Shown piece after piece: positions 5,287-62,967 of a stretch of DNA of 64,000 bases. Each line of letters opens with the position of its first letter. The first letter of the stretch is position 1. Below the pieces are notes generated by a model, which was given only the letters and a program-made list of their open reading frames with translations, had not been told where the DNA came from and made no database searches. Source of the stretch: a phage. The stretch lies in the sequence record OZ346167.1; one strand, written 5' to 3'. A program made the position numbers and the translations under genes.

Positions 5287-5664
5287 ATGGCATATCAAGG
5301 TTTTACTAAGTTAGGTAAAAGAGAACCTCTGAATGATATCATTCTTTGGGAACAGGTTACCCCAACAGGCCACTCTCGTAAAGAGTACACTCCACAGGCA
5401 TCTACAGAATATCGTGTAGGTGAAGTTCTGAAGGAAGACGGTACTAAAGTCGCAGCAGGGGAAGAAGCTCAGGCTGATTCTGTATGTATCGTTAACTTTT
5501 ATTCAGACCTGCAACCGTCTTACCACGGTCAGTTGAAAGTTGTTGGTATTTACCGTGACGCAGAACTGAAAGACATGCTTACTCTTGAGTCTAGTGTTAA
5601 TGCTGAGAACGTCAAGAAAGCTCTGGCTGCTAAAGGTATTGATTTCGTATCAACTGGCCTGTAA
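5287..5664 (+). CDS. hypothetical head protein (possible decoration protein)
   Basis: 125-aa ORF immediately upstream of major capsid gene. Confidence 0.35.
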   Translation: MAYQGFTKLGKREPLNDIILWEQVTPTGHSRKEYTPQASTEYRVGEVLKEDGTKVAAGEEAQADSVCIVNFYSDLQPSYHGQLKVVGIYRDAELKDMLTLESSVNAENVKKALAAKGIDFVSTGL

Positions 5665-5697
5665 TAACAATAATAAGACATTCTGGAGAATTTTACA

Positions 5698-6801
5698 ATG
5701 TTGACTAATTCTGAAAAAAGCAGATTTTTCCTTGCTGACCTGACTGGTGAAGTCCAGTCTATCCCAAATACTTATGGGTATATTTCCAACTTAGGTCTGT
5801 TCCGTTCAGCACCAATCACCCAAACTACTTTCCTTATGGACTTGACTGATTGGGATGTTAGCTTGCTTGATGCGGTAGACCGTGATAGCCGTAAAGCAGA
5901 GACTAGCGCACCTGAGCGTGTTCGTCAAATCAGCTTCCCAATGATGTACTTCAAAGAAGTTGAAAGCATCACTCCTGATGAAATTCAGGGTGTACGTCAG
6001 CCAGGCACTGCAAACGAACTGACTACTGAAGCTGTAGTACGTGCTAAGAAGCTGATGAAGATTCGTACCAAGTTCGATATTACTCGTGAGTTCCTGTTTA
6101 TGCAAGCTCTGAAGGGTAAAGTTGTTGATGCTCGTGGTACTCTGTATGCTGACCTGTACAAGCAGTTCGACGTTGAGAAGAAAACTGTTTACTTCGACCT
6201 TGACAACCCTAATGCTGACATCGATGCTGCTATTGAAGAACTGCGTATGCACATGGAAGACGAAGCTAAGACTGGCACTGTAATCAACGGTGAAGAAATT
6301 CACGTAGTTGTTGACCGTGTATTCTTCAGCAAACTGGTTAAGCACCCTAAGATTCGTGACGCTTATCTTGCACAGCAGACTCCACTGGCTTGGCAACAGA
6401 TTACTGGTTCTCTGAGAACTGGTGGTACTGACGGCGTTCAGGCTCACATGAACACCTTCTACTACGGTGGTGTTAAGTTTGTCCAGTACAACGGTAAGTT
6501 CAAAGACAAGCGTGGTAAGGTTCATACTCTGGTGAGCATTGATGGTGCTGGTGCAGAGGTTGGTGTAGGACACGCTTTCCCTAACGTTTCTATGCTTGGT
6601 GAAGCAAACAACATCTTCGAAGTGGCTTATGGTCCATGTCCTAAGATGGGTTACGCAAATACACTTGGTCAGGAACTGTACGTATTCGAATATGAAAAAG
6701 ACCGTGACGAAGGTATTGACTTCGAAGCTCACTCTTACATGCTGCCATACTGTACTCGTCCTCAGTTGCTGGTAGATGTTCGTGCTGACGCTAAAGACTA
6801 A
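5698..6801 (+). CDS. major capsid protein
   Basis: 367-aa ORF after protease/scaffold; strong RBS (GGAG) upstream; gene order. Confidence 0.55.
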   Translation: MLTNSEKSRFFLADLTGEVQSIPNTYGYISNLGLFRSAPITQTTFLMDLTDWDVSLLDAVDRDSRKAETSAPERVRQISFPMMYFKEVESITPDEIQGVRQPGTANELTTEAVVRAKKLMKIRTKFDITREFLFMQALKGKVVDARGTLYADLYKQFDVEKKTVYFDLDNPNADIDAAIEELRMHMEDEAKTGTVINGEEIHVVVDRVFFSKLVKHPKIRDAYLAQQTPLAWQQITGSLRTGGTDGVQAHMNTFYYGGVKFVQYNGKFKDKRGKVHTLVSIDGAGAEVGVGHAFPNVSMLGEANNIFEVAYGPCPKMGYANTLGQELYVFEYEKDRDEGIDFEAHSYMLPYCTRPQLLVDVRADAKD

Positions 6802-6822
6802 TATTCTTAAGGAGGGTTATGA

Positions 6823-7272
6823 ATGTGTTATACAGGCGACCCAGCCAATAACCCTCTTGATAGAGTAAGAATCCTCTGCACAGACACCAATAATGATGAA
6901 ATTCTTATTGAACAGTCTGTGCTAGAGTGGTTCTATCTAGAATCTGGAAAGGATGAAAAGAAAGCAGCCATCAAAGCTCTTAAATATTTACTCTTTCAAG
7001 TAGCCAAGATGGGAGATGAGAAGGTTGGTGGTGTTTATTTACGTAACTCTTCCAGATTCAAATCTCTGAAAGCTGTTTATGACGACCTTGTTAAAAGCTC
7101 TGTTTCAGGACTACCCTATGCAGGTGGTATTAATCAGTGTGACATTGATATGCGTCGTCAGAATCCTTGCTCTGTCAAGAAATACACAGAATATGGTGAT
7201 GCTGCCAGATACGAAGGCAGAGATTACTGCAACCGTGTTAATGGCGTATTTATTATCGAGCGAGATGAATAA
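6823..7272 (+). CDS. head-tail connector/adaptor candidate
   Basis: 149-aa ORF between capsid and tail genes; position only. Confidence 0.35.
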   Translation: MCYTGDPANNPLDRVRILCTDTNNDEILIEQSVLEWFYLESGKDEKKAAIKALKYLLFQVAKMGDEKVGGVYLRNSSRFKSLKAVYDDLVKSSVSGLPYAGGINQCDIDMRRQNPCSVKKYTEYGDAARYEGRDYCNRVNGVFIIERDE

Positions 7273-47151: not shown

Positions 47152-48348
47152 ATGAACAAAGTACAGATTATTAAAAAGAACGGCTCACTTGAAGAACCTG
47201 ATATCAAAAAAGTTTTAGCAGCAGTCACAAAGTCAGCTAATAGGGTTGGGTATAAAGAACTCCCACCAGATGTTACCCAAGCTCTTGAGTCAGCATTTAT
47301 GAGGATTCTGGTAAAATCCACTAAGCAGAATAATTTACTCATTTCAGTAAATGATATTCACAGTATTGTTGAGGGTGCTTTGGCAGAAGTCAATCACGAG
47401 ATTTATGAGTCTTACTCAACATATAGAAATTACCGTAAAGAAGTTGCTCAAAATTGGGATGAACTCTACCAGAAGACCAAAGATACACTCTTCTTAGGTG
47501 ACAGAGAGAATGCTAACTTTGACAGCAGTTTAATTTCTACAAAAGGTTCAATTATTCGTGGTTATCTGACTAAAGAAATCTTTAAACAGTACCATTTAAC
47601 ACCAGAGGAACTTGAAGCCATTGAAAAAGGGTTTATCTATATCCATGATTTAAGAGACCTAATTTTTGGTGGTATCAACTGTTGCCTGTTTGACATTGGT
47701 AAAGTCCTGAAAGGCGGCTTTGAAATGTCTGGCATCGAATATTGTGAACCAAAGTCTGTACTGTCGGCCTTACAGGTTATTGGTGACGTAGTTCTTTCAG
47801 CAACTGCACAGCAATTTGGTGGTTTTACTTTAGCAGAGATTGATAAGGTACTTGTACCGTATGCTAAGAAGTCTCTACGCTATCATGCTGAGAAAGCAGC
47901 ATCTTATGGTATTCCTAAAGAACATTACCACAATTATGTCATGGAGCAGCTACAGATTGAACTGACTCAAGGTTTCCAGTCACTTGAAATGAAGCTAAAT
48001 ACTGTACCTTGTAGTCGTGGGGATTTTGCATTCACAACTTTGACATTCGGGTTACTTGACTCAGATATGTCCAATGAAGATAACCGACTGCAATATATGA
48101 TTGCAAGTACTCTCCTAGATGTTCGTATGAATGGACAAGGTAAGAGCAAGAAGCCTGTTGTATTCCCTAAACTGGTTTATATCTATGACCAGAAGAGACA
48201 CGATGAGAATATCTGTCAAGGACACCTGTACAGTAAAGCCATTGAGTGTTGCTCTAAAGCAATGTATCCAGATTTCTTAAGTGTATCTGGTCATGGTGCT
48301 GTAGCAGAAGCTTTTGAGCGTTCTGGCAAGGTAATTTCGCCGATGGGT
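47152..48348 (+). CDS. nrdD: anaerobic ribonucleotide reductase (class III), exon 1
   Basis: ATP-cone-like N-terminus; ORF ends ...KVISPMG then stop at 48349-48351, exactly where exon 2 resumes with CRAFLSPY. Confidence 0.8.
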
Positions 48349-49090
48349 TAACAGGCTCTATAGCTCATCTAAAACGTGCCTAAACAGGGAAACTCTACAG
48401 GTGTAGACAATCCTGTGCTAAATGATGTACGATGTAAGAAACTATACAATATAGGAGTCTTACATGCCAAACTATCACGTCACTGAAGATGGAAAAGTCT
48501 TTAGGGAAAATGGTGTAGAGCTTACGCAGTGGAAATCCAACACTGGGTATATGAAAGTGAGGTTTTACGGTAAGAAGAATCGTGACATGTATGTCCACAG
48601 GTTAGTTGCTGAGAAATATGTACCTAACCCGAATAATCTTCCAATTGTAAAACATAAGGACGATAACAAACTAAATAACCACGCATCTAACTTAGAATGG
48701 GGTACTCATTCTGAGAATGCTAAAGAGGGTTATGAGAACGGATGTTACAAGTTCCACAAGCGTTCATATGCCGTGAAAGCCACACACAAAGTGACAAAGG
48801 AAGTTATTGTTACTAAGTCAATACGAGAGTTGTCCAATATACTTGGACACAATCGCAAGACCATCTCTTCAATATTGAAGGGTGTAAAAGAGCATAATAA
48901 CTTCGAATATGAGTTTGAATACATCTAAATGCCGAACGACTAACCGTGATGAATGTAGCGGTGTAGGGTCAAGCGACTCGAAATGGTACGCTACTTAGAA
49001 ATAAGTAGAAGATATAGTCTGGACTTACTGGCGACAGTAAGCAGCTTGAATAAAGCGGGGTAAGCTTAGCGAACTTACCTGAACAACAAG
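48349..49090 (+). mobile_element. group I intron in nrdD carrying an HNH endonuclease ORF
   Basis: follows exon-terminal U, ends in G; P4-like pairing CCUAAACAGGG / AAUCCUGUG; R-like GAACGACUAA (48934-48943) and S-like AAGAUAUAGUC (49010-49019); internal ORF 48464-48928. Confidence 0.75.
48464..48928 (+). CDS. intron-encoded HNH homing endonuclease
   Basis: HNH core HRLVAEKYVPNPNNLPIVKHKDDNKLNNHASNLEW; located inside the nrdD intron. Confidence 0.75.
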   Translation: MPNYHVTEDGKVFRENGVELTQWKSNTGYMKVRFYGKKNRDMYVHRLVAEKYVPNPNNLPIVKHKDDNKLNNHASNLEWGTHSENAKEGYENGCYKFHKRSYAVKATHKVTKEVIVTKSIRELSNILGHNRKTISSILKGVKEHNNFEYEFEYI

Positions 49091-50038
49091 TGTAGAGCGT
49101 TTTTATCACCATACCATAACGAATATGGTGAAGAGTTTTATGTAGGTCGTGCTAACATTGGTGCTGTATCTTTGAACTTACCAATGATTTACCAGTATTC
49201 TAAAGAGAATGGCTTAGATTTCTGGAAAGAGCTTGATAAGTACCTAGAAATGATTCGCAGCTTCCACAAGAAACGTTACGAAATGATTGCTAATATGCCA
49301 GCAAGTTCTAACCCTCTTGCATTCACACAGGGTGGTCTGTACAAAGGGAATAAGAAACCTACTGACAAGGTTGGCTGGGATATCGTGAAGTCCTTCACAG
49401 CTTCTTTTGGGGTTACTGCGCTTGATGAGCTATCTGTTCTTGCTGAAGGTAAACGACTTCATGAAGTTGGAAGCTGTAGTTTTGCATATGATGTTCTGGA
49501 ATATATCAACATGAAGACTGAAGAGTTTAAAAATGAAGATGGCTTCTTATATGCAGTCTATGGCACTCCAGCAGAATCACTTTGTGGAACTCAGCTAAAA
49601 CAGTTCAGAGATATGTTTGGCGTTATCAAAGGCGTTTCTGACAAGGAATACTTTACAAACAGTTTCCATATGAATGTTGCAGCAGATATTACACCATTTG
49701 AGAAGCAGGACTTAGAAGAACCCTTCTTCCATATCTGTAGAGGCGGCAGAATCCAGTATGTAAGAGTGGCTAACCCAGAAAACTTATCAGCACTTAAGAG
49801 TTGTATTACAAGAGGGATGTTGAAAGGTTTCTATCAGGGACTTAACTTTGACTTAGCAATCTGTGAACATTGTGGTAACAGACCAAAGGCTGATGTTGAA
49901 GAATGTGAGGTTTGTCATTCACACGATATCTCTGTGATTAACAGGGTGTGCGGATATTTGGGATGGACTAAGATTAAAGGTGAATCCCGAATGAATGATG
50001 CAAAAATCGCTGAGATTCGTGACAGAATTTCTATGTAA
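49091..50038 (+). CDS. nrdD: anaerobic ribonucleotide reductase (class III), exon 2
   Basis: begins CRAFLSPY... and ends with glycyl-radical motif RVCGYLG; in-frame stop just upstream at 49088-49090. Confidence 0.8.
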   Translation, partial: CRAFLSPYHNEYGEEFYVGRANIGAVSLNLPMIYQYSKENGLDFWKELDKYLEMIRSFHKKRYEMIANMPASSNPLAFTQGGLYKGNKKPTDKVGWDIVKSFTASFGVTALDELSVLAEGKRLHEVGSCSFAYDVLEYINMKTEEFKNEDGFLYAVYGTPAESLCGTQLKQFRDMFGVIKGVSDKEYFTNSFHMNVAADITPFEKQDLEEPFFHICRGGRIQYVRVANPENLSALKSCITRGMLKGFYQGLNFDLAICEHCGNRPKADVEECEVCHSHDISVINRVCGYLGWTKIKGESRMNDAKIAEIRDRISM

Positions 50039-53276: not shown

Positions 53277-53547
53277 AGAAAAGTGGGAGATTTTACCATT
53301 AGTCAGTGAAGGCGGCAATGGTTGTGAAATGTACATGATACGTGGTCATATTCCAGAGCCAATTGCACTTGAGATGGTAAATAATTATACAGATGGTTCC
53401 TGCAAAGACTTAGGAGAACCAACTGTCAAGCAGCAATGGGTAAAGCCTGTGCCAGACAGCACAGGTAACTGTAGTGTACTTTATCACGTTGTAGACCCTG
53501 TAAAATGCAAATCTGCAATGGCAGTAACAAACGTAACTTTTGATTGA
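53269..53547 (+). CDS. hypothetical cysteine-containing protein
   Basis: 92-aa ORF. Confidence 0.3.
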   Translation: MAKEKWEILPLVSEGGNGCEMYMIRGHIPEPIALEMVNNYTDGSCKDLGEPTVKQQWVKPVPDSTGNCSVLYHVVDPVKCKSAMAVTNVTFD

Positions 53548-54440
53548 GAGAGAAAACTATGAAAACATCTATCCGTGTTACAATTCATTCACCAACTAAA
53601 GGAACTCATGAAGAAGAGTTTAACATCATTCAATTCCCTTCTGGTGAGATTGGTGGACACTTTTCACAAGAGCTAGTTGATTTTACTGCTTATGCAGCAT
53701 CCTCCATTAACAATGTGGTTATGATTGTAAAAGGCTACGACAAGGACACATTGTTTGCTGTGGCACTTGCTAAAGAAGCAATTGATGATTTGATTCCTCA
53801 TGATTATGCCTTAAAGACTGTCATCTTTTACTACTTACCAAATGCACGATATGACCGTCACATGTTTAAAGGTGATGCAGCAGCTTTGAAGGTTTTTGCT
53901 AAACAGGTTAATGCAATGGGGTTTGGTGCAGTCTGTGCAGTTGACCCTCACAGCTATGTACCAGATAACCTGTTTAACTGCTTCCAGAGTATTCCTCAAA
54001 AGGAGATTGCAGTCCACTATGCAAATGACCCACTGGTTGATTACTTAGTAGCCCCAGATGCAGGTGCTGCTAAGAAGGTTGCAGAGACCGCTAAAGAGGT
54101 GGATAAACCATATATCACAATGTCTAAGGTGCGTAACCTTAAGACTGGTGAAATTACTGGTATGCGAATCCTTGATGATGTTGATTTGACAGATAAAACC
54201 GTCATGATTCTGGATGATATCTGTGATGGTGGTCGAACCTTCATAGAAGCAGCTAAGCATCTTCGTGAAGCAGGTGCAAAACGTGTGGAACTTTATGTAA
54301 CACATGGTATCTTCTCTAAAGATGTTGAAAACCTTCTTGACAATGGTATCGACCATATTTACACTACAAACTCTTTAGGCGAAGCTAAAGACCGTGGCTT
54401 AACACATTATGGTCAAGTTACTGTAGCAAACCTTGATTGA
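53544..54440 (+). CDS. ribose-phosphate pyrophosphokinase (PRPP synthetase) family protein; candidate ADP-ribose pyrophosphate synthetase of a NARP1-type pathway
   Basis: PRPP-binding loop ILDDICDGGRT and YLPNARYDRH (cf. ARQDR flexible loop); adjacent to NAMPT-like gene. Confidence 0.7.
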   Translation: MREKTMKTSIRVTIHSPTKGTHEEEFNIIQFPSGEIGGHFSQELVDFTAYAASSINNVVMIVKGYDKDTLFAVALAKEAIDDLIPHDYALKTVIFYYLPNARYDRHMFKGDAAALKVFAKQVNAMGFGAVCAVDPHSYVPDNLFNCFQSIPQKEIAVHYANDPLVDYLVAPDAGAAKKVAETAKEVDKPYITMSKVRNLKTGEITGMRILDDVDLTDKTVMILDDICDGGRTFIEAAKHLREAGAKRVELYVTHGIFSKDVENLLDNGIDHIYTTNSLGEAKDRGLTHYGQVTVANLD

Positions 54441-54449
54441 AAGTTTATA

Positions 54450-54470
54450 GGGGCTTGAAAGCCCCATTTT
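54450..54470 (+). terminator. hairpin / weak terminator between the Prs-like and NAMPT-like genes
   Basis: GGGGCTT-GAA-AAGCCCC followed by ATTTTG. Confidence 0.4.
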
Positions 54471-54544
54471 GAGAGAGATTAAAAGATGACTAAATCACTT
54501 TATGCAGTACCAGCAGGTTTAAACGCAGATGCTTACAATATCTT

Positions 54545-55897
54545 ATGTTGAACCTGACACCACGTAGTGACAAATGGTTTAACAGCCCTTTGGCAATTGA
54601 CGGTGTAGTGGCTTTTGGTATTCAACGTTTCGTTAAAGATTACTTGATAGACCATTGGAACGCCACTTTCTTTGAACGTGACAAAAAAGAAGCAATTGAC
54701 GAAATCTTAGAAGTCATGAACGGCGTTATGGGTAAAGATGCTATTGGTCGAGAGCATTGGGAAGCACTTCACGACTTAGGTTATCTACCAGTTGAAGTAT
54801 ACGCTGTAGAAGAAGGCACAGTTGTCCCGATGCGTGTCCCAATGATTGTCTTCCAGAACACTGTTTCAGGTTTCCATTGGGTAGCAGGTTATCTGGAAGA
54901 TGCTTTCTCTGCTGAGATTTGGAAGGCTTGCACCATTGCAACTATTGCATTGCATTATAAACGCATCTGTAAGAAGTGGGCTGACCTTACTTGTGACAAC
55001 GACTTACATTTACCTTATCAGTGTCATGACTTTGCTATGCGTGGTATGTCAGGCTTTACTGATGACGCATTTAACGCTGTAGGTCACTTAACCAGCTTTA
55101 AAGGAACTGATAGCTTCCCTACTGTGTATACGGCTAAACGAATCTATGGACAGTCCTACCCAATCTCTGATATTGGTAGCTCTGTACCAGCCACTGAACA
55201 CTCTGTAATGTGTGCAAACATTGCTTGGGAAGGTGGTAATGAATTGATTGAAGAAGAAAGACGCTTTAAAGGTGAGTTACAAACCTTCCGTCGCTTCTTA
55301 ACAGAAACTTACCCAACTGGTATTGCAAGTATTGTTTCAGATACTTATAACTTCTGGAGAACTGTGTCAGAAATCTTACCAGCACTCCGTAAAGAGATTA
55401 TGGAACGTGATGGCAAACTGGTAATTCGGCCTGACTCTGGAGACCCTGTACATATTGTCACAGGATATAAAGCAATCCACTTAGAGTGTGCTAAGAAGGC
55501 TTATTACGAACACTTAAGCAAGCTTGAAGCCAGCGACACAATGTTGAATGCTGTTCTGAACATGAAGCTTGAAAACATCAATTATGGTATTGCTGGATGG
55601 CTACTGTCAGAAGGCTACGAAATGGTTGTTGACAGAGAAGACTTTGAAGTTGCTGATACAGTGCTGTTGAAAAACGCTTATATGGTTGGTTCTGCAAACG
55701 TTGTAACACGTCCTGTAGCTGAGATTGATGGAGCTATTAAGACACTGTACAACATCTTTGGGGCTTTGTATCTCACCTTGATGTTGAAATTGATGAAGAA
55801 GGTTACATCATTGGTTGGAAGAAAGTATCTACTCGTGAAGGCAAGCTGGTTGACTCCCACACCTACAGAGTACCTAATGATTTGGGTAACATTGTAG
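54545..55897 (+). CDS. nicotinamide phosphoribosyltransferase (NAMPT/NadV) family protein; candidate nicotinamide ADP-ribose transferase; reading frame probably continues in +2 frame to 56208
   Basis: matches NAMPT blocks: HDFAMRGMS, SFKGTDS, SVPATEHS, VSDTYN, IRPDSGDP; last ~50 codons are atypical and an overlapping +2-frame ORF runs on to 56208. Confidence 0.7.
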   Translation: MLNLTPRSDKWFNSPLAIDGVVAFGIQRFVKDYLIDHWNATFFERDKKEAIDEILEVMNGVMGKDAIGREHWEALHDLGYLPVEVYAVEEGTVVPMRVPMIVFQNTVSGFHWVAGYLEDAFSAEIWKACTIATIALHYKRICKKWADLTCDNDLHLPYQCHDFAMRGMSGFTDDAFNAVGHLTSFKGTDSFPTVYTAKRIYGQSYPISDIGSSVPATEHSVMCANIAWEGGNELIEEERRFKGELQTFRRFLTETYPTGIASIVSDTYNFWRTVSEILPALRKEIMERDGKLVIRPDSGDPVHIVTGYKAIHLECAKKAYYEHLSKLEASDTMLNAVLNMKLENINYGIAGWLLSEGYEMVVDREDFEVADTVLLKNAYMVGSANVVTRPVAEIDGAIKTLYNIFGALYLTLMLKLMKKVTSLVGRKYLLVKASWLTPTPTEYLMIWVTL

Positions 55898-56208
55898 AAA
55901 TGCCACGTTGGATGGTTGATAATAACCGTAACGTGACTTGCTCTCAAGGTCTTCATGTTGGTGCTTGGGATTATGTTCGTTGCTTCTCAGGTGATACAAT
56001 TCTGAAGGTTCGTGTCCATCCACGAGACGTTGTATCCGTACCAACTGATTACAACGATATGAAGATGCGCTCGTCTCGTTATGAAGTTGCAGCAATCGTT
56101 GATAATCAACGTAAAGTGCTGAAAGCATGGGATGGCAAGACTGAAGCTTTGCATGTCATCGTTGGCACTGCTGGGGAACTCATCTCTCAGCGTAAACGTG
56201 AAATCTAA
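55741..56208 (+). CDS. probable C-terminal continuation of NAMPT-like protein in alternative frame (or separate small protein from 55882)
   Basis: +2 frame is open from 55741; inserting one G at the GGGG run 55761-55764 fuses both frames into one ~554-codon ORF. Confidence 0.4.
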   Translation, partial: DTVQHLWGFVSHLDVEIDEEGYIIGWKKVSTREGKLVDSHTYRVPNDLGNIVEMPRWMVDNNRNVTCSQGLHVGAWDYVRCFSGDTILKVRVHPRDVVSVPTDYNDMKMRSSRYEVAAIVDNQRKVLKAWDGKTEALHVIVGTAGELISQRKREI

Positions 56209-56224
56209 TAAGTAATTTCTTAAA

Positions 56225-56248
56225 AGGCTGCTTCGGCGGCCTTTTTTA
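56225..56248 (+). terminator. rho-independent terminator (UUCG tetraloop)
   Basis: AGGCTGC-TTCG-GCGGCCT followed by TTTTTT. Confidence 0.6.
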
Positions 56249-56308
56249 TTTGTATTTTGTGCAGAGTACTGTATAATTGTTGTCACGATAAACTAAACAG
56301 GAGAACCA

Positions 56309-56857
56309 ATGAAGAAATTGATTCTAGGTTTGTGCTTAATGTTTACAGCACACTTAGCTTATGCAGTTGACTGCCCAGAGCTATCAATTAGCCAAAAAGT
56401 AAACATGTTAAAAGCTTACCAGTATGGTGAGAATAACATGGGTAAAGGTTGGGGTATCACTCTAGCTGCTATAGCCTTACAAGAGTCAGAGTTAGGTCTG
56501 AAGGTAGAGAATAAAAAGACACACGATTATGGTATTTTCCAGAATCACTTGAAGACTGTTGTAAAGCGTAACAAAATTAGTCCTAATGTGGCTAAAAAGA
56601 AACTCTTAAAAGACTTTGACTATGCTGCAAAGGAAACGCACAAAGAACTTGAGTTTTGGACAAAGGTGCATGGTCAGCCAAAGTCAAAGAAGACTTTACA
56701 AAAAGTTTTAGCATCATATAATGCTGGGTATTCGTACAGAATCCCTAAAGCTAAGAAGTATTCTCAAGATGTCTATAACAACATGAAAGTTATTGCCCAA
56801 TGTGAATTTGCAACAAACATTTCTAAGGTAAACCATGAAAAAATTAAGAAAGTCTGA
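56309..56857 (+). CDS. secreted lytic-transglycosylase-like protein (endolysin candidate)
   Basis: signal peptide MKKLILGLCLMFTAHLAYA; AIALQESELG and DYGIFQNH resemble the SLT-domain catalytic ES and GLMQ motifs. Confidence 0.45.
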   Translation: MKKLILGLCLMFTAHLAYAVDCPELSISQKVNMLKAYQYGENNMGKGWGITLAAIALQESELGLKVENKKTHDYGIFQNHLKTVVKRNKISPNVAKKKLLKDFDYAAKETHKELEFWTKVHGQPKSKKTLQKVLASYNAGYSYRIPKAKKYSQDVYNNMKVIAQCEFATNISKVNHEKIKKV

Positions 56858-57530
56858 TGAAGTCCTGTGCCATGCTTATGACTTGCATCCTCATGAGTTA
56901 GGTCTTGATTCCTGTGTATGGACTCCAGAACAGTATAGGGATTTTGAAGACACTGCAAGAGAAGTTGTATGTTCACTTGAAGAGTTCCACACATCAGAAC
57001 CAATCGTGAACGTTGTGGACAAAGAGACTGGACAGACTGTAGGGGTAAGACGTGATAGCTTAGTCATAGTCAATAGAGACCTTGTAGAAAAAGGGAACCT
57101 CATCTTAGCAGATATTGATGGTGTTCTTACAAATTTTAATCCAGAAGATTACTCAACGGAATTGACTGATGGTTCATTTTCACAGTACACTAATCTCCTT
57201 GACTCTGTAAGAGCAAAACCAACGTATGTTTTCAATATCATTGATGCAATTGCTAATCATGCTGCCGTTGGACTCTTGACAGCGAGAGGCGAATCTCAGA
57301 GAATACCTACTGAGATGTTTTTAAGGCATAACACAGAGCATGACTACATGCTTTTTATGCGTGGTTTTGGGACTAACTCTATAAGTGCAGAAAGTTTGAA
57401 AGTGAGGATGATTCAGTCTTGCATTCTGCCTTACTTTAATATAGTATGTTTTATAGAAGACACAGAGAAGAATGTGCAGAAGGTGAACAGAATCCTTCCA
57501 CACATTAAAACCATGTTAGTTAAACATTGA
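56835..57530 (+). CDS. HAD-like hydrolase candidate
   Basis: LADIDGVLTNF resembles HAD motif I (DxDGxL). Confidence 0.3.
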   Translation: MKKLRKSDEVLCHAYDLHPHELGLDSCVWTPEQYRDFEDTAREVVCSLEEFHTSEPIVNVVDKETGQTVGVRRDSLVIVNRDLVEKGNLILADIDGVLTNFNPEDYSTELTDGSFSQYTNLLDSVRAKPTYVFNIIDAIANHAAVGLLTARGESQRIPTEMFLRHNTEHDYMLFMRGFGTNSISAESLKVRMIQSCILPYFNIVCFIEDTEKNVQKVNRILPHIKTMLVKH

Positions 57531-59461: not shown

Positions 59462-59663
59462 AAAGACACGAAAACTTATCAGGTCAGCAGTGTTCATTGG
59501 ACGAAATGAGGTCATCCCATTTACAGCAAATGATGTGATAGCTTACAGGAAGAACTTAGTATTCACTGACTGCTTACGTGGCTTCATCTCTGAACCATTG
59601 GAAGACTTTAAAAGTCGTTGTGGTAAAGGTATCATCATTCAAGAGGCAATTATTCATGGCTGA
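59436..59663 (+). CDS. hypothetical protein
   Basis: 75-aa ORF. Confidence 0.3.
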   Translation: MKVILARDKKTRKLIRSAVFIGRNEVIPFTANDVIAYRKNLVFTDCLRGFISEPLEDFKSRCGKGIIIQEAIIHG

Positions 59664-59856
59664 CTTCTGTAAAGACTGTTCTATCGAAATGTTCGGACGT
59701 GATACAGGTGACTTAAAAGGTCTTATCACTGAAGAGGACTTTAAAGCTGGCTATGCAATGCCAGTAATCTGTGAAGGATGTGGATGTATCTGGGTAGACC
59801 ATGAAGGGCAACGTGTAAAACCTTCAGAAGATAAAGAATCTTGGGAGAGATGTTAA
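59578..59856 (+). CDS. small zinc-ribbon protein (true start probably at internal Met)
   Basis: CKDC...CEGCGC cysteine pairs. Confidence 0.3.
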   Translation: MASSLNHWKTLKVVVVKVSSFKRQLFMADFCKDCSIEMFGRDTGDLKGLITEEDFKAGYAMPVICEGCGCIWVDHEGQRVKPSEDKESWERC

Positions 59857-60636
59857 ATGGGTATTGTAAAAGTTGTAAAAGGTAACTTACTGGCTGCCTT
59901 CAAAAACACAGATATTGAGTTAATTGCTCATGGTTGCAACTGTCGTAACCTCATGGGTGCTGGAATCGCTCAAAAAATTGCTAAGATTTTCCCAAAAGCT
60001 GAAGAAGCTGACCGGAAATTCCATAAAAAGTTTGGCTACAGTGCTCATGATATCGGATACCAGATGGTGGGTGAGGTGTCACATGCTCGAACGGAGTACG
60101 GTTACATTTTTAACCTGTATACACAGTTGGATGTTGGGAAGTGTGCATCATACCGATACTTAGTGGAGTCACTAGAAAAACTCCGTAAGTTTTGCTGGCT
60201 GCACAACATTCGTAAGATTGGTTTACCCATGATTGGTGCAGGTATCGGTGGTTTAGATGCACAAGCTGTGAAAAGCCTCATTAATAGTGTTATGTACAAC
60301 GTTGATGTGTACCTATATGTCTATGATGAAGCAATGGCAAGTGTAGTTACCCCTAAGTATGCTACCTCAGCACCACAATTCTATGATGGTGTCGTGCTCA
60401 GTGATGGTAAGTCTAACCATGTTACCCTCTATCAGCTTGTTGATGGTGAAGTTGAGGTTAGTTACCCTCTGGTTAGTGAGATGGGTATGTGCAATAGTGA
60501 AATGTTCCCAGTTGACCCGTTTGGAAGATATGAAGGTGTATTCTTTGATAACTACCCAGCAGCGTACATCTACACAACAAATCAGGATGAAGTTCACTAC
60601 TTGCTGTATTCTAAAAAGTTCAAATTCATAAGCTGA
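59857..60636 (+). CDS. macrodomain protein (TARG1/OARD1-like ADP-ribose hydrolase) with C-terminal extension
   Basis: IAHGCNCRNLMGAGIAQKIAKIF and GLPMIGAGIGGLD align with the TARG1-type macrodomain signature blocks; ~100-aa C-terminal extension of unknown function. Confidence 0.65.
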   Translation: MGIVKVVKGNLLAAFKNTDIELIAHGCNCRNLMGAGIAQKIAKIFPKAEEADRKFHKKFGYSAHDIGYQMVGEVSHARTEYGYIFNLYTQLDVGKCASYRYLVESLEKLRKFCWLHNIRKIGLPMIGAGIGGLDAQAVKSLINSVMYNVDVYLYVYDEAMASVVTPKYATSAPQFYDGVVLSDGKSNHVTLYQLVDGEVEVSYPLVSEMGMCNSEMFPVDPFGRYEGVFFDNYPAAYIYTTNQDEVHYLLYSKKFKFIS

Positions 60637-60669
60637 TTAGTACTTCATAGTATCTACAAATCATCTAAG

Positions 60670-60718
60670 AAGGCTGCCTAACCCATTGAAAAATTTAAGG
60701 TAAGGCGGCCTTTTTCAT
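60670..60718 (+). terminator. terminator candidate after macrodomain gene
   Basis: AGGCTGCC ... GGCGGCCT stem with long loop, followed by TTTTTC. Confidence 0.4.
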
Positions 60719-61032
60719 TTTCAATTTGTGCAGGTATCTGTAGGGGTCTGTACAGATATCCCAAAAAATCTCATCGCCGGATAGAAAAATCATTCTCAAA
60801 ACGTGCAGACCCCGCTCAGGTCGGGCAAGAAAAATCATTTTAGAATTGTGCAGGTAGGTTTTTATAGAGAGCCAGCCCAGCCCCTCTCCCCCTCTTACTC
60901 CCCCTCTCCCCAAAAGTCAAGAGAAAAATTTGTAGCGGATTGAAAAATAATTCTTGATTTGCGTTCTGTTTTGTGGTAGTCGTGCGCACCCGTTTCATTA
61001 CAGTTTTGCCAAAAATATTTTTAAAATTTTTA

Positions 61033-61061: not shown

Positions 61062-61124
61062 TTACATCAACGGGGAGGGAATGACCTTCCCCACTAAATA
61101 AAATCCTAAACTGGAGATTCAAAA

Positions 61125-61313
61125 ATGGCATCAAGAAAAATTAAAGTTGGCGATGAGGTTAACATCAAGCACGAACACTCTTACAAAATGCTAACTATAC
61201 GCTCTTATAAGGTTTATCAGGTGGAAGCTATCCACAAAGATAACACTTTTTCCTTAAAAGGTTATAGCGAACGTTTCCCTGCTGAACTCTTTGAGAAATG
61301 GAGCGCGAAATAA
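61125..61313 (+). CDS. small hypothetical protein
   Basis: 62-aa ORF with conserved leader and GGAG RBS. Confidence 0.45.
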   Translation: MASRKIKVGDEVNIKHEHSYKMLTIRSYKVYQVEAIHKDNTFSLKGYSERFPAELFEKWSAK

Positions 61314-61519
61314 TGCTTTACAGTCGTGAATTGATGGTTACAACTAACGTTAACACAAAGGTAAAACGTTTTTACATGCAAATTTGTGGCGTATGGTCTA
61401 GAATATCAGAGGCTGACTATTGCAACTATGTAGAAACAGCTATAAACTCTAATTGCTATCTTACAAGAAATACAAGAAAGTACATAAGACAGACAGCAAT
61501 TTACTACTACGATAAATAA
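61298..61519 (+). CDS. small hypothetical protein
   Basis: 73-aa ORF overlapping the previous stop. Confidence 0.35.
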   Translation: MEREIMLYSRELMVTTNVNTKVKRFYMQICGVWSRISEADYCNYVETAINSNCYLTRNTRKYIRQTAIYYYDK

Positions 61520-61524
61520 AGTAC

Positions 61525-61560
61525 TTTACAAGGGGCTTATAGTTCGATAAAGTAAGCCCC
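61525..61560 (+). promoter_or_regulatory. promoter/stem-loop cassette (PeSL-like), copy 1
   Basis: TTTACA-17 nt-TAAAGT with hairpin GGGGCTTA...TAAGCCCC spanning spacer and -10; followed by conserved leader AGATAAAGAGCTTTACCACTAAATCCTAAACTGGAGA. Confidence 0.6.
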
Positions 61561-61605
61561 AGATAAAGAGCTTTACCACTAAATCCTAAACTGGAGAACT
61601 TAAAA

Positions 61606-61986
61606 ATGGCATACCGCGCACCGAAATTCATCAATAAAGAAAATTTTCGTAATGTATTAGAGAAGGCGCTTGATGAAAAATTTAACGGCAAAATAATTGT
61701 TGTTCACTCGTTCAATTTCAAGTATGATATCAACGGGAATAAAATCAACCATTACACGGCAACCATGTTAGATGGCAATCTTTCAAGTGAAAAAGCCGTA
61801 CTGAATGCACTTGCTGGACGTGGAAAAAATCTGATAAGATGTGATAAGAGACGTTATCAGGGCGGCGCATATGGTTATGATGATGCTATCTATCATCTTG
61901 AAAATATGGGCTATCAAGTAGAAAAAGCTGGAGTATCACAAATCATCGGGAGCGATGGTTATGTAACAATCTTCAAAATTAACTGA
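61606..61986 (+). CDS. small hypothetical protein
   Basis: 126-aa ORF behind cassette copy 1. Confidence 0.45.
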   Translation: MAYRAPKFINKENFRNVLEKALDEKFNGKIIVVHSFNFKYDINGNKINHYTATMLDGNLSSEKAVLNALAGRGKNLIRCDKRRYQGGAYGYDDAIYHLENMGYQVEKAGVSQIIGSDGYVTIFKIN

Positions 61987-61994
61987 TAAAGTAC

Positions 61995-62030
61995 TTTACA
62001 AGGGGCTTATAGTTCGATAAAGTAAGCCCC
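61995..62030 (+). promoter_or_regulatory. promoter/stem-loop cassette (PeSL-like), copy 2
   Basis: near-identical repeat of 61516-61608 (TTTACA, GGGGCTTATAGTTCGATAAAGTAAGCCCC, conserved leader). Confidence 0.6.
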
Positions 62031-62075
62031 AGATAAAGAGCTTTAACACTAAAATCCTAAATTGGAGATTCTAAA

Positions 62076-62369
62076 ATGGCTATTATCAGAAACGTTGTAA
62101 TTACTGCAAAGACTCGTGATGACGCTCGCGCTATGGCTAAAAAGTTATGCGGGAAAGTGGTTGACAACGGAAAACAATCTGCTGTAAGATGGGGCGTAAA
62201 GGTTGATAAACATTTGAAGTTAAAAAATTCACCGATAAACCTTTTTACATGTGTAAACACTATCGGGAAGACAAATGTATACACGAAAAAGGCATATATT
62301 AGACGCGTAGCATTAACATCCCCCATTCGTACAATGAGAAGTTATGCAAAGCTAAAAATTAACAAATAA
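62076..62369 (+). CDS. small hypothetical protein
   Basis: 97-aa ORF behind cassette copy 2. Confidence 0.45.
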   Translation: MAIIRNVVITAKTRDDARAMAKKLCGKVVDNGKQSAVRWGVKVDKHLKLKNSPINLFTCVNTIGKTNVYTKKAYIRRVALTSPIRTMRSYAKLKINK

Positions 62370-62374
62370 AGTAC

Positions 62375-62410
62375 TTTACAAGGGGCTTAAAAGCTGGTAT
62401 CTTAAGCCCC
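62375..62410 (+). promoter_or_regulatory. promoter/stem-loop cassette (PeSL-like), copy 3
   Basis: TTTACA-17 nt-TATCTT; hairpin GGGGCTTAA...TTAAGCCCC with a different loop; same conserved leader. Confidence 0.6.
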
Positions 62411-62454
62411 AGATAAAGAGCTTTACCACTAAATCCTAAACTGGAGATTCCAAA

Positions 62455-62967
62455 ATGAAAACTGTAGACGCTACCTTTGAAGTTGTAAAAGAAAAATTCA
62501 CCATTATTTATGAAGCTGTTAATTGCTACGAAGCAAGCCATAATCTTGATAATTGGAAGTTTACAGATGACCATCAAGGCGGCGTGACTATTAAAAACCC
62601 TAACTGTCAGCGTAACGATTTTAAATATGCAATCCCTTTAAATTATAGCCTTAAACAGCTTTCTAGTGACTATGCAAAACAAGGCCGGGAAAACCCATCA
62701 AAAGAGGCTTACACCAGCTTACAGAAAGAACTAGAAAGAGATTTAGAGGCTTCAGAATACAACCTTGCCGCGAAAGTTATCGATGCAAATGGCAACACGG
62801 TTTTAGAGAGTTTTTATCTAGGATATGCCTTTGATTGGTGCTATAGTGACGGCGATGATTTAGATGACAGACTAAAAGAGGAAGTGAACAATTCAGACGC
62901 AGAATCTGAAGTATTAGAACGTCTGGAATCATTAAAAGACTCAGTGATGAATATCTTTAAGAACTAA
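62455..62967 (+). CDS. hypothetical protein
   Basis: 170-aa acidic ORF behind cassette copy 3. Confidence 0.45.
   Translation: MKTVDATFEVVKEKFTIIYEAVNCYEASHNLDNWKFTDDHQGGVTIKNPNCQRNDFKYAIPLNYSLKQLSSDYAKQGRENPSKEAYTSLQKELERDLEASEYNLAAKVIDANGNTVLESFYLGYAFDWCYSDGDDLDDRLKEEVNNSDAESEVLERLESLKDSVMNIFKN

Follow-up and report, generated by a model that had tools for sequence, protein, structure and literature searches.

Phage macrodomain proteins have been recognised as counter-defence enzymes only in 2025-2026, in two settings: AdfM, which acts against DarTG2, and Adpp, which acts against aRES. In phage T4, tk.4 was the single gene depleted on a DarTG2 host, a clean knockout sensitised the phage, and the gene was named adfM, for anti-DarT factor (HIDEN-SEQ preprint 10.1101/2025.11.20.689424, 2025). 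The AdfM of the chimallivirus PhiKZ, gp104, is a Lys-type macrodomain that removes DarT2-made ADP-ribose from DNA (PMC13309987). NARP1, the gene pair Adps and Namat, was discovered in Felixounavirus Bas63 and rebuilds nicotinamide adenine dinucleotide (NAD+) from ADP-ribose and nicotinamide, not from phosphoribosyl pyrophosphate. A Poa1p-like macrodomain, Adpp, is carried by 15% of NARP1 operons and dephosphorylates ADP-ribose-1''-phosphate, the product of the RES-domain defence aRES, for use by NARP1 (10.64898/2026.01.28.702374). Among bacterial macrodomain proteins, SCO6735 removes ADP-ribose from thymidine in DNA by hydrolysis and gives protection against DarT (PMC9411070). Here we describe a candidate counter-defence gene, called the macro gene below, in a stretch of phage DNA of 64,000 nucleotides (sequence record OZ346167.1; the whole stretch is referred to as the window). 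Its product, the macro protein, joins a macrodomain resembling T4 Tk.4 to a C-terminal domain (CTD) of its own kind.

The open reading frame (ORF) and its parts are as follows.

59857..60636, + strand: complete ORF, ATG to TGA, 259 amino acids plus the stop codon, with two domains (macrodomain and CTD)
59857..60327, + strand: macrodomain, residues 1-157, of the ALC1-like class and assigned to the phage Tk.4/AdfM "NLYTQ" clade
60328..60369, + strand: linker, residues 158-171, with a helix at 158-164 and the lowest model confidence (block mean predicted local distance difference test [pLDDT] 76)
60370..60633, + strand: CTD, residues 172-259, with a P-x-x-[FY]-D-G motif (Pro173...Gly178), six beta strands and a C-terminal helix

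The first-pass annotation, made from the letters of the DNA, had placed the protein at 59857-60636 and in a lytic phage. The frame was borne out, with all the peptide strings quoted for it present, and so was the setting: Escherichia phage finno is 97.6% identical in this region, 221 Felix-O1-like records match it, and by this sequence similarity the window phage is a lytic member of the genus Felixounavirus, subfamily Ounavirinae.

We are confident that residues 1-157 form a macrodomain of the ALC1-like class, in which TARG1, DarG, Poa1p, SCO6735 and ALC1 are counted (PMC9411070). The Pfam Macro family (PF01661) matches residues 25-140; the score of 28.9 bits exceeds the cut-off of 22, and model positions 2-116 of 118 are covered. 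Significant sequence matches in the Protein Data Bank (PDB) (E < 0.03) were found for TARG1, the DarG proteins of Thermus aquaticus and Mycobacterium tuberculosis, Poa1p (E = 9e-5), SCO6735 and BT1257; the best of them by phmmer is TARG1/OARD1 (E = 5e-8, residues 54-156), and the T. aquaticus DarG macrodomain matches over residues 2-157 (E = 6e-7). A full-length AlphaFold2 model built on 31 homologues (pLDDT 93.3; predicted template modelling score 0.88) was compared with solved structures by Foldseek, where the best match was the T. aquaticus DarG macrodomain (E = 1e-10, template modelling [TM] score 0.82-0.84) and the other top matches were TARG1 (TM 0.85-0.88), M. tuberculosis DarG and Poa1p (TM 0.76-0.78). 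All of these top matches align only about 155-175 columns, that is, the macrodomain. The comparison with TARG1 and DarG that the first-pass annotation had proposed thus found both among the best fold matches. Its label "TARG1-like" holds for fold and class. Its description of the domain as aligning "block for block" with TARG1 was overstated: HMMER aligns residues 54-156 only, and the two catalytic residues of TARG1 are not conserved.

DarG is likewise the best match among profiles. The DarG hidden Markov model (HMM) was the sole PADLOC match (E = 3e-16, model positions 2-150 of 329), and the top NCBIfam match was the DarG equivalog NF048014, at 56.7 bits against a cut-off of 250 and over HMM positions 2-152 of 338. 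DarG (DarG2; T. aquaticus 5M31/5M3E, M. tuberculosis 5M3I) also shares with the macro protein the layout of a macrodomain followed by a second domain. However, its catalytic Lys80 is a Gln in the macro protein, its C-terminal DarT-binding domain of about 180 amino acids is unmatched there, and no darT gene lies adjacent to the macro gene; on these three grounds we rejected the identification of the protein as a DarG antitoxin.

The residues that bear on catalysis lie in four conserved motifs.

59929..59940, + strand: His25-Gly-Cys-Asn28, the active-site H-x-x-N, invariant in 31 of 31 homologues
59953..59970, + strand: Met33-Gly-Ala-Gly-Ile-Ala38, first glycine-rich loop, nearly invariant in the family alignment
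60112..60126, + strand: Asn86-Leu-Tyr-Thr-Gln90 ("NLYTQ"), invariant in 30 of 31 homologues and found in T4 Tk.4 too
60235..60258, + strand: Gly127-Ala-Gly-Ile-Gly-Gly-Leu-Asp134, second glycine-rich loop, with Gly131 at the position of TARG1 Asp125

His25, Asn28, Asn86, Leu87 and Gln90 are invariant in the aligned homologues, and most residues of the two glycine-rich loops (Met33-Ala38 and Gly127-Gly132) are invariant or nearly so; the first of these loops we take to be ADP-ribose-binding, as is general in macrodomain structures. Human TARG1/OARD1 (4J5Q/R/S) shares the macrodomain class, the fold and both loops, but it has no C-terminal domain and depends on a Lys84/Asp125 dyad that is absent here: in the HMMER pairwise and the MAFFT multiple alignment alike, Lys84 (in "ITK") stands opposite Gln90 (in "YTQ") and Asp125 (in "GLD") opposite Gly131. 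The Schiff-base mechanism of TARG1 therefore cannot apply. The label "TARG1-like" fails at the catalytic level, and we rejected identity with TARG1 for want of the dyad. The catalytic Lys of DarG (Lys80 in T. aquaticus) falls at the same position, Gln90.

The nearest catalytic counterpart is SCO6735 of Streptomyces coelicolor (5E3B). Its sequence was recovered from the PDB alignment, and the chain numbering agreed with the published mutants H24, N27, K34, Q85 and K89. MAFFT places His25, Asn28 and Gln90 of the macro protein on His24, Asn27 and Gln85 of SCO6735, and Gln90 on Lys84 of TARG1; further counterparts of the His25/Asn28 pair are Asn22 in T. aquaticus DarG and His24 in the Adpp of Vibrio phage Gary. 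Gln85 of SCO6735 corresponds structurally to Lys84 of TARG1 and Lys80 of DarG, and the Q85A exchange abolishes activity (PMC9411070). SCO6735 and BT1257 share the same catalytic solution, with an N-[LM]-x-x-Q motif that matches NLYTQ, whereas SCO6735 differs in being a single-domain bacterial housekeeping or repair protein of about 28% identity (35 bits), with an insertion after the Gln that carries Lys89 and with a conserved Trp retained. The predicted active site of the macro protein is His25/Asn28/Gln90, of the SCO6735 (Gln) type, with Gln in place of the Lys of TARG1 and DarG; at least two characterised enzymes with a site of this type are catalytically active. The first-pass annotation had named the absence of the catalytic residues as a finding that would refute its reading. 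The TARG1 residues are indeed absent, which removes the TARG1 mechanism but not activity as such, since the Gln is essential in SCO6735.

CHARACTERISED

Homologues of the macrodomain were found by tblastn in 2,747 phage records, the tk.4 genes of T-even phages included, and full-length matches to the macro protein in about 257. PHROG 335 ("phosphatase") gives a significant full-length profile match to residues 1-258 (E = 5.9e-85). In the databases the homologues are mostly named "hypothetical" or "phosphatase", some "O-acetyl-ADP-ribose deacetylase" or "high-affinity ADP-ribose binding module". Felix O1 has ORF13 in the orthologous slot, and the long-standing annotation of ORF13 already makes it a homologue of Tk.4, under the T4 name "17.5 kDa protein in the tk-vs intergenic region". 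Tk.4 (155 amino acids) is 33% identical to the window macrodomain over 159 residues, the whole domain (E = 9e-23), and shares the motifs HGCN, NLYTQ and IGAGIG; like the macro gene, tk.4 is an orphan phage gene with no toxin gene adjacent. Unlike the macro protein, which has GGLD without Trp, Lys95 and an extra domain of about 90 residues, Tk.4 consists of the macrodomain only and has GKGNW, with Trp, and Pro at position 95. PhiKZ gp104 is also an orphan phage macrodomain, and its catalytic Asn23 corresponds to Asn28 (PMC13309987), but its active site is of the DarG2-like Lys type (Lys78), it is imported into the phage nucleus, and its lineage is independent of the Gln-type clade of Tk.4 and the Ounavirinae.

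For comparison with Adpp-type sequences we used those of Table S1 of 10.64898/2026.01.28.702374 and that of Vibrio phage K408, whose macrodomain gene sits between Adps and Namat. In BLASTP with the window macrodomain, macrodomain-only proteins with NLYTQ scored 77-114 bits, T4 Tk.4 78.6 bits, the NARP1-linked macrodomain of Pseudomonas phage JG004 87 bits, Gary Adpp (the biochemically tested member) 53.5 bits and the K408 protein 49 bits. In a rough neighbour-joining tree (BLOSUM62, 24 sequences, 200 bootstraps), the two-domain proteins were monophyletic in 197 of the 200 replicates. They grouped with T4 Tk.4 and the macrodomain-only NLYTQ proteins in 102, or in 145 when Acinetobacter phage phiAbaA1 was included, and the macro protein lay nearer to T4 Tk.4 than to Gary Adpp in 174. 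With moderate confidence, these comparisons place the window macrodomain with T4 Tk.4 (AdfM). Apart from the two-domain proteins treated below, a metagenomic protein of 338 amino acids, P0032, carries an NLYTQ-type macrodomain with a different C-terminal extension of about 170 amino acids; this extension is unrelated to the CTD, so that macrodomains of the Tk.4 type are fused to more than one kind of C-terminal module.

The CTD is modelled well both within the full-length protein (pLDDT 92-97) and alone (87), and the last 104 residues alone still match PHROG 335 (E = 1.6e-15). Outside that family it stands by itself. No Pfam match was found in 16 members (the best, to PH in one member, had an E value of 0.11 and is not significant); the CTD alone matched nothing in PADLOC or NCBIfam, its profile matched no PDB sequence, and no counterpart was found among PDB folds. 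The sole return from the BFVD viral fold library was its own homologue in phage SUSP2. A profile search against 1.84 billion representative proteins recovered only fusions with NLYTQ macrodomains or fragments of these; the other hits were multi-repeat proteins, which we judged spurious. A DarG-like C-terminal domain was also considered and rejected, given that the DarG HMMs cover the macrodomain only and the CTD alone has no match. The statement in the first-pass annotation that the C-terminal 100 or so residues have no recognisable counterpart therefore stands for Pfam, NCBIfam, PADLOC, PDB sequences and PDB folds, but the extension is not unique to this protein: it is a conserved, Ounavirinae-wide domain within PHROG 335.

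The two-domain form was found by tblastn in Felixounavirus, Mooglevirus, Pectobacterium phages Wc4 and Arno, Hafnia phages and Yersinia phage P778, as well as in a record labelled "Listeria phage LPML1". Its carriers have genomes of about 85-92 kb, are all Ounavirinae where a taxonomy is given, and hold the gene in the same slot in each of the four genomes examined for this (Felix O1, Wc4, Zyzzx and Mordin). The LPML1 record (OK283618.1, 87 kb) encodes its two-domain protein at 55724-56560; as this protein is 77% identical to proteins of Hafnia (Ounavirinae) phages, the Listeria host label looks doubtful.

Only Pro173 and Gly178 are invariant in the CTD. Identity to Felix-type alleles is about 25% in the CTD and about 50% in the macrodomain, so at depth the CTD diverges about twice as fast. 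Among ten close alleles, the ratio of nonsynonymous to synonymous substitution rates (dN/dS) ranged from 0 to 0.07 for the macrodomain and lay mostly between 0.03 and 0.12 for the CTD. These CTD values indicate a constrained domain under purifying selection rather than a decaying one, and no signal of positive selection or of an arms race was detected in the CTD by dN/dS among these alleles. The presence of the CTD goes together with changes in the macrodomain: Leu133 is present and Trp135 absent in all 20 CTD-bearing proteins, and position 95 is Lys, Arg or His in 19 of them, whereas nine of 11 macrodomain-only relatives have GG-G-x-W. The GG-L-D form without Trp135 is specific to the CTD-bearing proteins, and the Trp that they have lost is conserved in TARG1, SCO6735, BT1257 and T4 Tk.4. 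The changes fall in the two loops that bear the catalytic residues of TARG1, and this co-variation suggests that the CTD may act at the substrate face of the macrodomain.

We consider it very probable that the macro protein is a catalytically competent, ADP-ribose-processing macrodomain used against ADP-ribose- or NAD+-based immunity. That its specific substrate would be DNA modified by DarT2 is a more tentative reading, drawn by analogy with AdfM and given somewhat less than an even chance. According to this reading, during infection the macrodomain would hydrolyse the link between ADP-ribose and thymidine with which host toxins of the DarT2 type mark single-stranded phage DNA, and so would restore replication and release free ADP-ribose. 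The reversal of DarT-type immunity was the first idea of the first-pass annotation, and it gains support from the need for the homologue T4 Tk.4 against DarTG2. The neighbours of the macro gene are small phage ORFs; PADLOC found no defence family, DarT included, in the five ORFs on each side, and no ADP-ribosyltransferase or defence-family protein was found among these ten. Because no darT lies nearby, the macro protein would act as an orphan antitoxin-like enzyme. For the CTD we infer a non-catalytic role, as an Ounavirinae-specific module for partner binding or substrate targeting, which could, for instance, tether the enzyme to the DNA it acts on, to a protein of the replisome or to the toxin. 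We rank an AdfM-like role on DNA first and an Adpp-like role second, given the position of the gene outside the NARP1 operon, the lack of Escherichia and Salmonella phages from the list of Adpp proteins, and the tree. One promiscuous enzyme could also serve both roles.

Several points weigh against the DNA substrate and the part proposed for the CTD. Both key precedents, T4 AdfM and Adpp, are preprints, and the evidence for AdfM in T4 is purely genetic. The His/Asn/Gln triad is found in the NARP1-associated Adpp phosphatases as well, and we rejected it as a means of telling AdfM from Adpp since both carry it (the Adpp types being NVYGQ and NLHAQ). The NARP1-linked macrodomain of JG004 scores slightly above T4 Tk.4 (87 versus 78.6 bits), and the clade joining the macro protein to T4 has 51-72% bootstrap support in a rough neighbour-joining tree. 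NARP1 and the macro gene co-occur in conserved synteny across the Ounavirinae, which is just as compatible with an Adpp-like function. Nor does net charge point to DNA binding: isoelectric points range from 4.6 to 9.7 and are unrelated to context, T4 Tk.4 itself is acidic, and charge was rejected as a clue. Finally, the co-variation of the CTD with the loops is confounded by phylogeny, as the CTD-bearing proteins are a single clade.

The strongest alternative, plausible though less likely than the first reading, is an ADP-ribose-1''-phosphate phosphatase of the Adpp type that works with the phage's own NARP1. Host aRES cleaves NAD+ to nicotinamide and ADP-ribose-1''-phosphate, which NARP1 cannot use; in this scheme the macrodomain would remove the phosphate, and Adps and Namat, whose genes lie some 4-9 kb upstream and point the same way, would rebuild NAD+ from the ADP-ribose. 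The window does carry the pair found in Felixounavirus Bas63, whose pathway uses ADP-ribose: a Prs-like ORF at 53544-54440 ("ribose-phosphate pyrophosphokinase") is Adps, and a Nampt-like ORF at 54545-55897 ("nicotinamide phosphoribosyltransferase") is Namat. The gene order Adps-Namat-rIIA-rIIB-lysin-pnk-...-macro is conserved in finno (Felixounavirus) and in Hafnia phage Zyzzx, and in the unannotated record of Pectobacterium phage Wc4 the same order was inferred from gene sizes alone; this conservation is in favour of the scheme. So are the significant match to Poa1p in sequence and in fold, cited above, and the clear homology to NARP1-linked macrodomains (JG004 and Gary, with the scores given). 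The Adpp preprint adds that inactivating any of the three genes of a NARP1-AP system abolished its anti-defence effect, and its primer table lists an active-site mutant, H24A, whose equivalent in the window is His25 (10.64898/2026.01.28.702374). The aRES systems tested came from E. coli, Klebsiella and Enterobacter, with homologues in Salmonella and Citrobacter, which is the host range of this phage group. Gary Adpp is itself a Poa1p-like phage macrodomain with its His24, Asn and Gln at the positions found in the macro protein, and the window phage type encodes NARP1 as well.

Gary Adpp nevertheless differs from the macro protein: it shares only 28% identity, has the motifs NVYGQ and IGCGLAGGDW, is a single domain of a different clade, and is encoded between Adps and Namat. 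The macro gene lies outside the NARP1 operon and is not within two genes of Adps or Namat: 12 ORFs separate it from Namat in the window, and in finno it is about 9 kb away, beyond rIIA, rIIB and the lysis genes. Table S1 of the preprint lists no NARP1-associated macrodomain from an Escherichia or Salmonella phage, and the tree favours T4 Tk.4 over Gary-type Adpp (174 of 200 bootstraps). Ser30 of Poa1p, mutated in a PDB entry, aligns to Leu32, and it is not obvious why a phosphatase of small molecules should keep a conserved extra domain. T4, which to our knowledge is without NARP1, needs Tk.4 against DarTG2.

The state of NARP1 in the window also bears on the question. Relative to finno, about 4.1 kb are absent, with the junction at window positions 55739-55763 and effects on 54545-56208: window 54294-55763 aligns to positions 3-1509 of the finno locus and window 55739-57000 to positions 5638-6899, with an overlap of 25 nt. 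The deletion removes the 3' end of Namat, which retains about 406 amino acids plus 44 out-of-frame residues. Also lost are a small ORF, the whole of rIIA and the greater part of rIIB, so that the ORF at 55882-56208 is the C terminus of rIIB. The window phage is thus an rII deletion variant in which NARP1 is probably inactive. That Namat is truncated and the macro gene intact speaks against cooperation between them, but it is a weak point, as the deletion may be recent. The first-pass annotation had offered, as its second idea, that the macrodomain feeds ADP-ribose to a neighbouring NAD+ module. This has precedent, in that the neighbours are Adps and Namat, NARP1 consumes ADP-ribose and some phages add Adpp; it is weakened by the truncated Namat and by the place of the macro gene outside the operon.

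A further possibility, which we regard as unlikely, concerns the CTD, which might be a second, non-enzymatic anti-defence module of a new fold that directly binds and neutralises a host effector (DarT2, another ADP-ribosyltransferase or an NADase like aRES), or that redirects the hydrolase towards a target whose ADP-ribosylation has yet to be discovered. If the CTD did bind an effector, the Ounavirinae protein would be a convergent phage analogue of the two-part DarG, which erases the modification and binds the toxin, and the two diverged alleles of Felixounavirus would track different variants of the host effector.

It is improbable, though not without arguments, that the protein is a hydrolase for some other substrate, such as protein-linked ADP-ribose, ADP-ribosylated RNA (CmdTAC type) or O-acetyl-ADP-ribose, with the CTD giving specificity. 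The close relatives TARG1 and SCO6735 also act on protein substrates, some homologue records bear the deacetylase name mentioned above, and a dedicated extra domain would suit the recognition of a macromolecule. Defence by ADP-ribosylation of RNA is known, and countermeasures on the side of phages are anticipated (PMC11825919). Yet the ten flanking ORFs hold no ADP-ribosyltransferase or defence-family protein, the sole known phenotypes of close phage relatives are anti-DarTG2 activity and ADP-ribose-1''-phosphate phosphatase activity, and no particular alternative substrate has positive evidence in its favour. A non-catalytic ADP-ribose binder, serving as reader or sponge by sequestering molecules derived from ADP-ribose or by shielding modified sites, is very improbable: TARG1 Lys84/Asp125 and DarG Lys80 are absent, some homologues are annotated as binding modules, and the binding-only macrodomain ALC1 aligns a Gln with Gln90, but the identical Gln is catalytically essential in SCO6735, Gary Adpp with the same triad is an active enzyme, and the invariant His25 and Asn28 have equivalents required for activity in Adpp, PhiKZ AdfM and SCO6735.

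The surroundings of the macro gene contain three further features.

59843..59849, + strand: Shine-Dalgarno-like GGGAGAG, 7 nt before the ATG, seen directly in the sequence
60667..60724, + strand: hairpin with a T-rich stretch after it, probably an intrinsic terminator (dG -25 kcal/mol)
59880..60790, + strand: divergent allele cassette, delimited by blastn and sliding-window identity against Felix O1

The ATG follows immediately on the TAA that ends the gene before it. The hairpin, 30-80 nt past the stop codon of the macro gene, is unusually stable (z = -5.26, with equally good folds in none of 200 shuffles), and with its T-run it indicates that the macro gene closes a long co-directional cluster; a scan for consensus terminators made no call at this hairpin, presumably owing to its branched, long loop. 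The PhageMaP preprint on essentiality in Bas63 contains nothing on the macro gene.

Compared with Felix O1, the DNA is 97% identical between 57000 and about 59880; identity falls to 38-75% through the gene and about 150 nt beyond, and is 90-100% again at about 60790, the flanks being about 97% identical. The window-type allele (at least 90% protein identity) was found in only 13 phage records, whose phages infect both E. coli and Salmonella; the other 244 or so full-length matches are about 40% identical, which is also the protein identity to the common allele of Felix O1. Such cassette-like replacement of alleles is a pattern common at anti-defence loci. The allele of Escherichia phage VpaE1_ev035 (L014 407-1186) combines a macrodomain with a synonymous substitution rate (dS) of 0.40-0.55 against other window-type alleles and a CTD with a dS of 0.02-0.27, nearly identical to that of phage Si3 (dS 0.02). 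These values suggest a mosaic that arose by recombination inside the gene, with the breakpoint between the two domains.

Directly upstream, at 59656-59856, a 66-residue ORF of PHROG 2210 has two Cys pairs (CKDC ... CEGC), is zinc-ribbon-like and is identical to Felix O1 ORF12. We considered it as a conserved partner of the macro protein and rejected it, as it occurs only in Felixounavirus and Mooglevirus; in Wc4 and Zyzzx unrelated small genes take its place. Between the small genes downstream lie intergenic repeats of about 60-100 bp (61064-61129, 61513-61610, 61975-62088 and 62353-62460), each with several matches in the finno locus (74-99% identity); they probably represent promoter or terminator units that recur through the early region. 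Farther away, nrdD, encoding anaerobic ribonucleotide reductase (window 47152-50038), is split into an N-terminal ORF at 47152-48351 and a C-terminal ORF at 49172-50038, with a free-standing HNH endonuclease ORF at 48464-48928 between the halves, which looks like an intron or homing-endonuclease insertion.

Membership of the macrodomain in the Tk.4/AdfM, PHROG 335 phage family and in the ALC1-like class is known already. Not described before are the Ounavirinae-wide fusion to an orphan domain, the Gln-type chemistry of the whole phage clade and the coexistence with an unlinked NARP1. Were the protein merely another AdfM, the result would be a routine improvement of annotation; were the CTD to bind a host effector, its fold would be a new one among inhibitors. 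The two-domain architecture is conserved across a phage subfamily used in phage therapy and in Salmonella typing, and the Gln active site of the large Tk.4/Ounavirinae clade bears on the mechanism by which thymidine-linked ADP-ribose is hydrolysed. With NARP1 and an unlinked macrodomain in one type of genome, these phages could tell whether a single enzyme serves both anti-DarT and anti-aRES roles.

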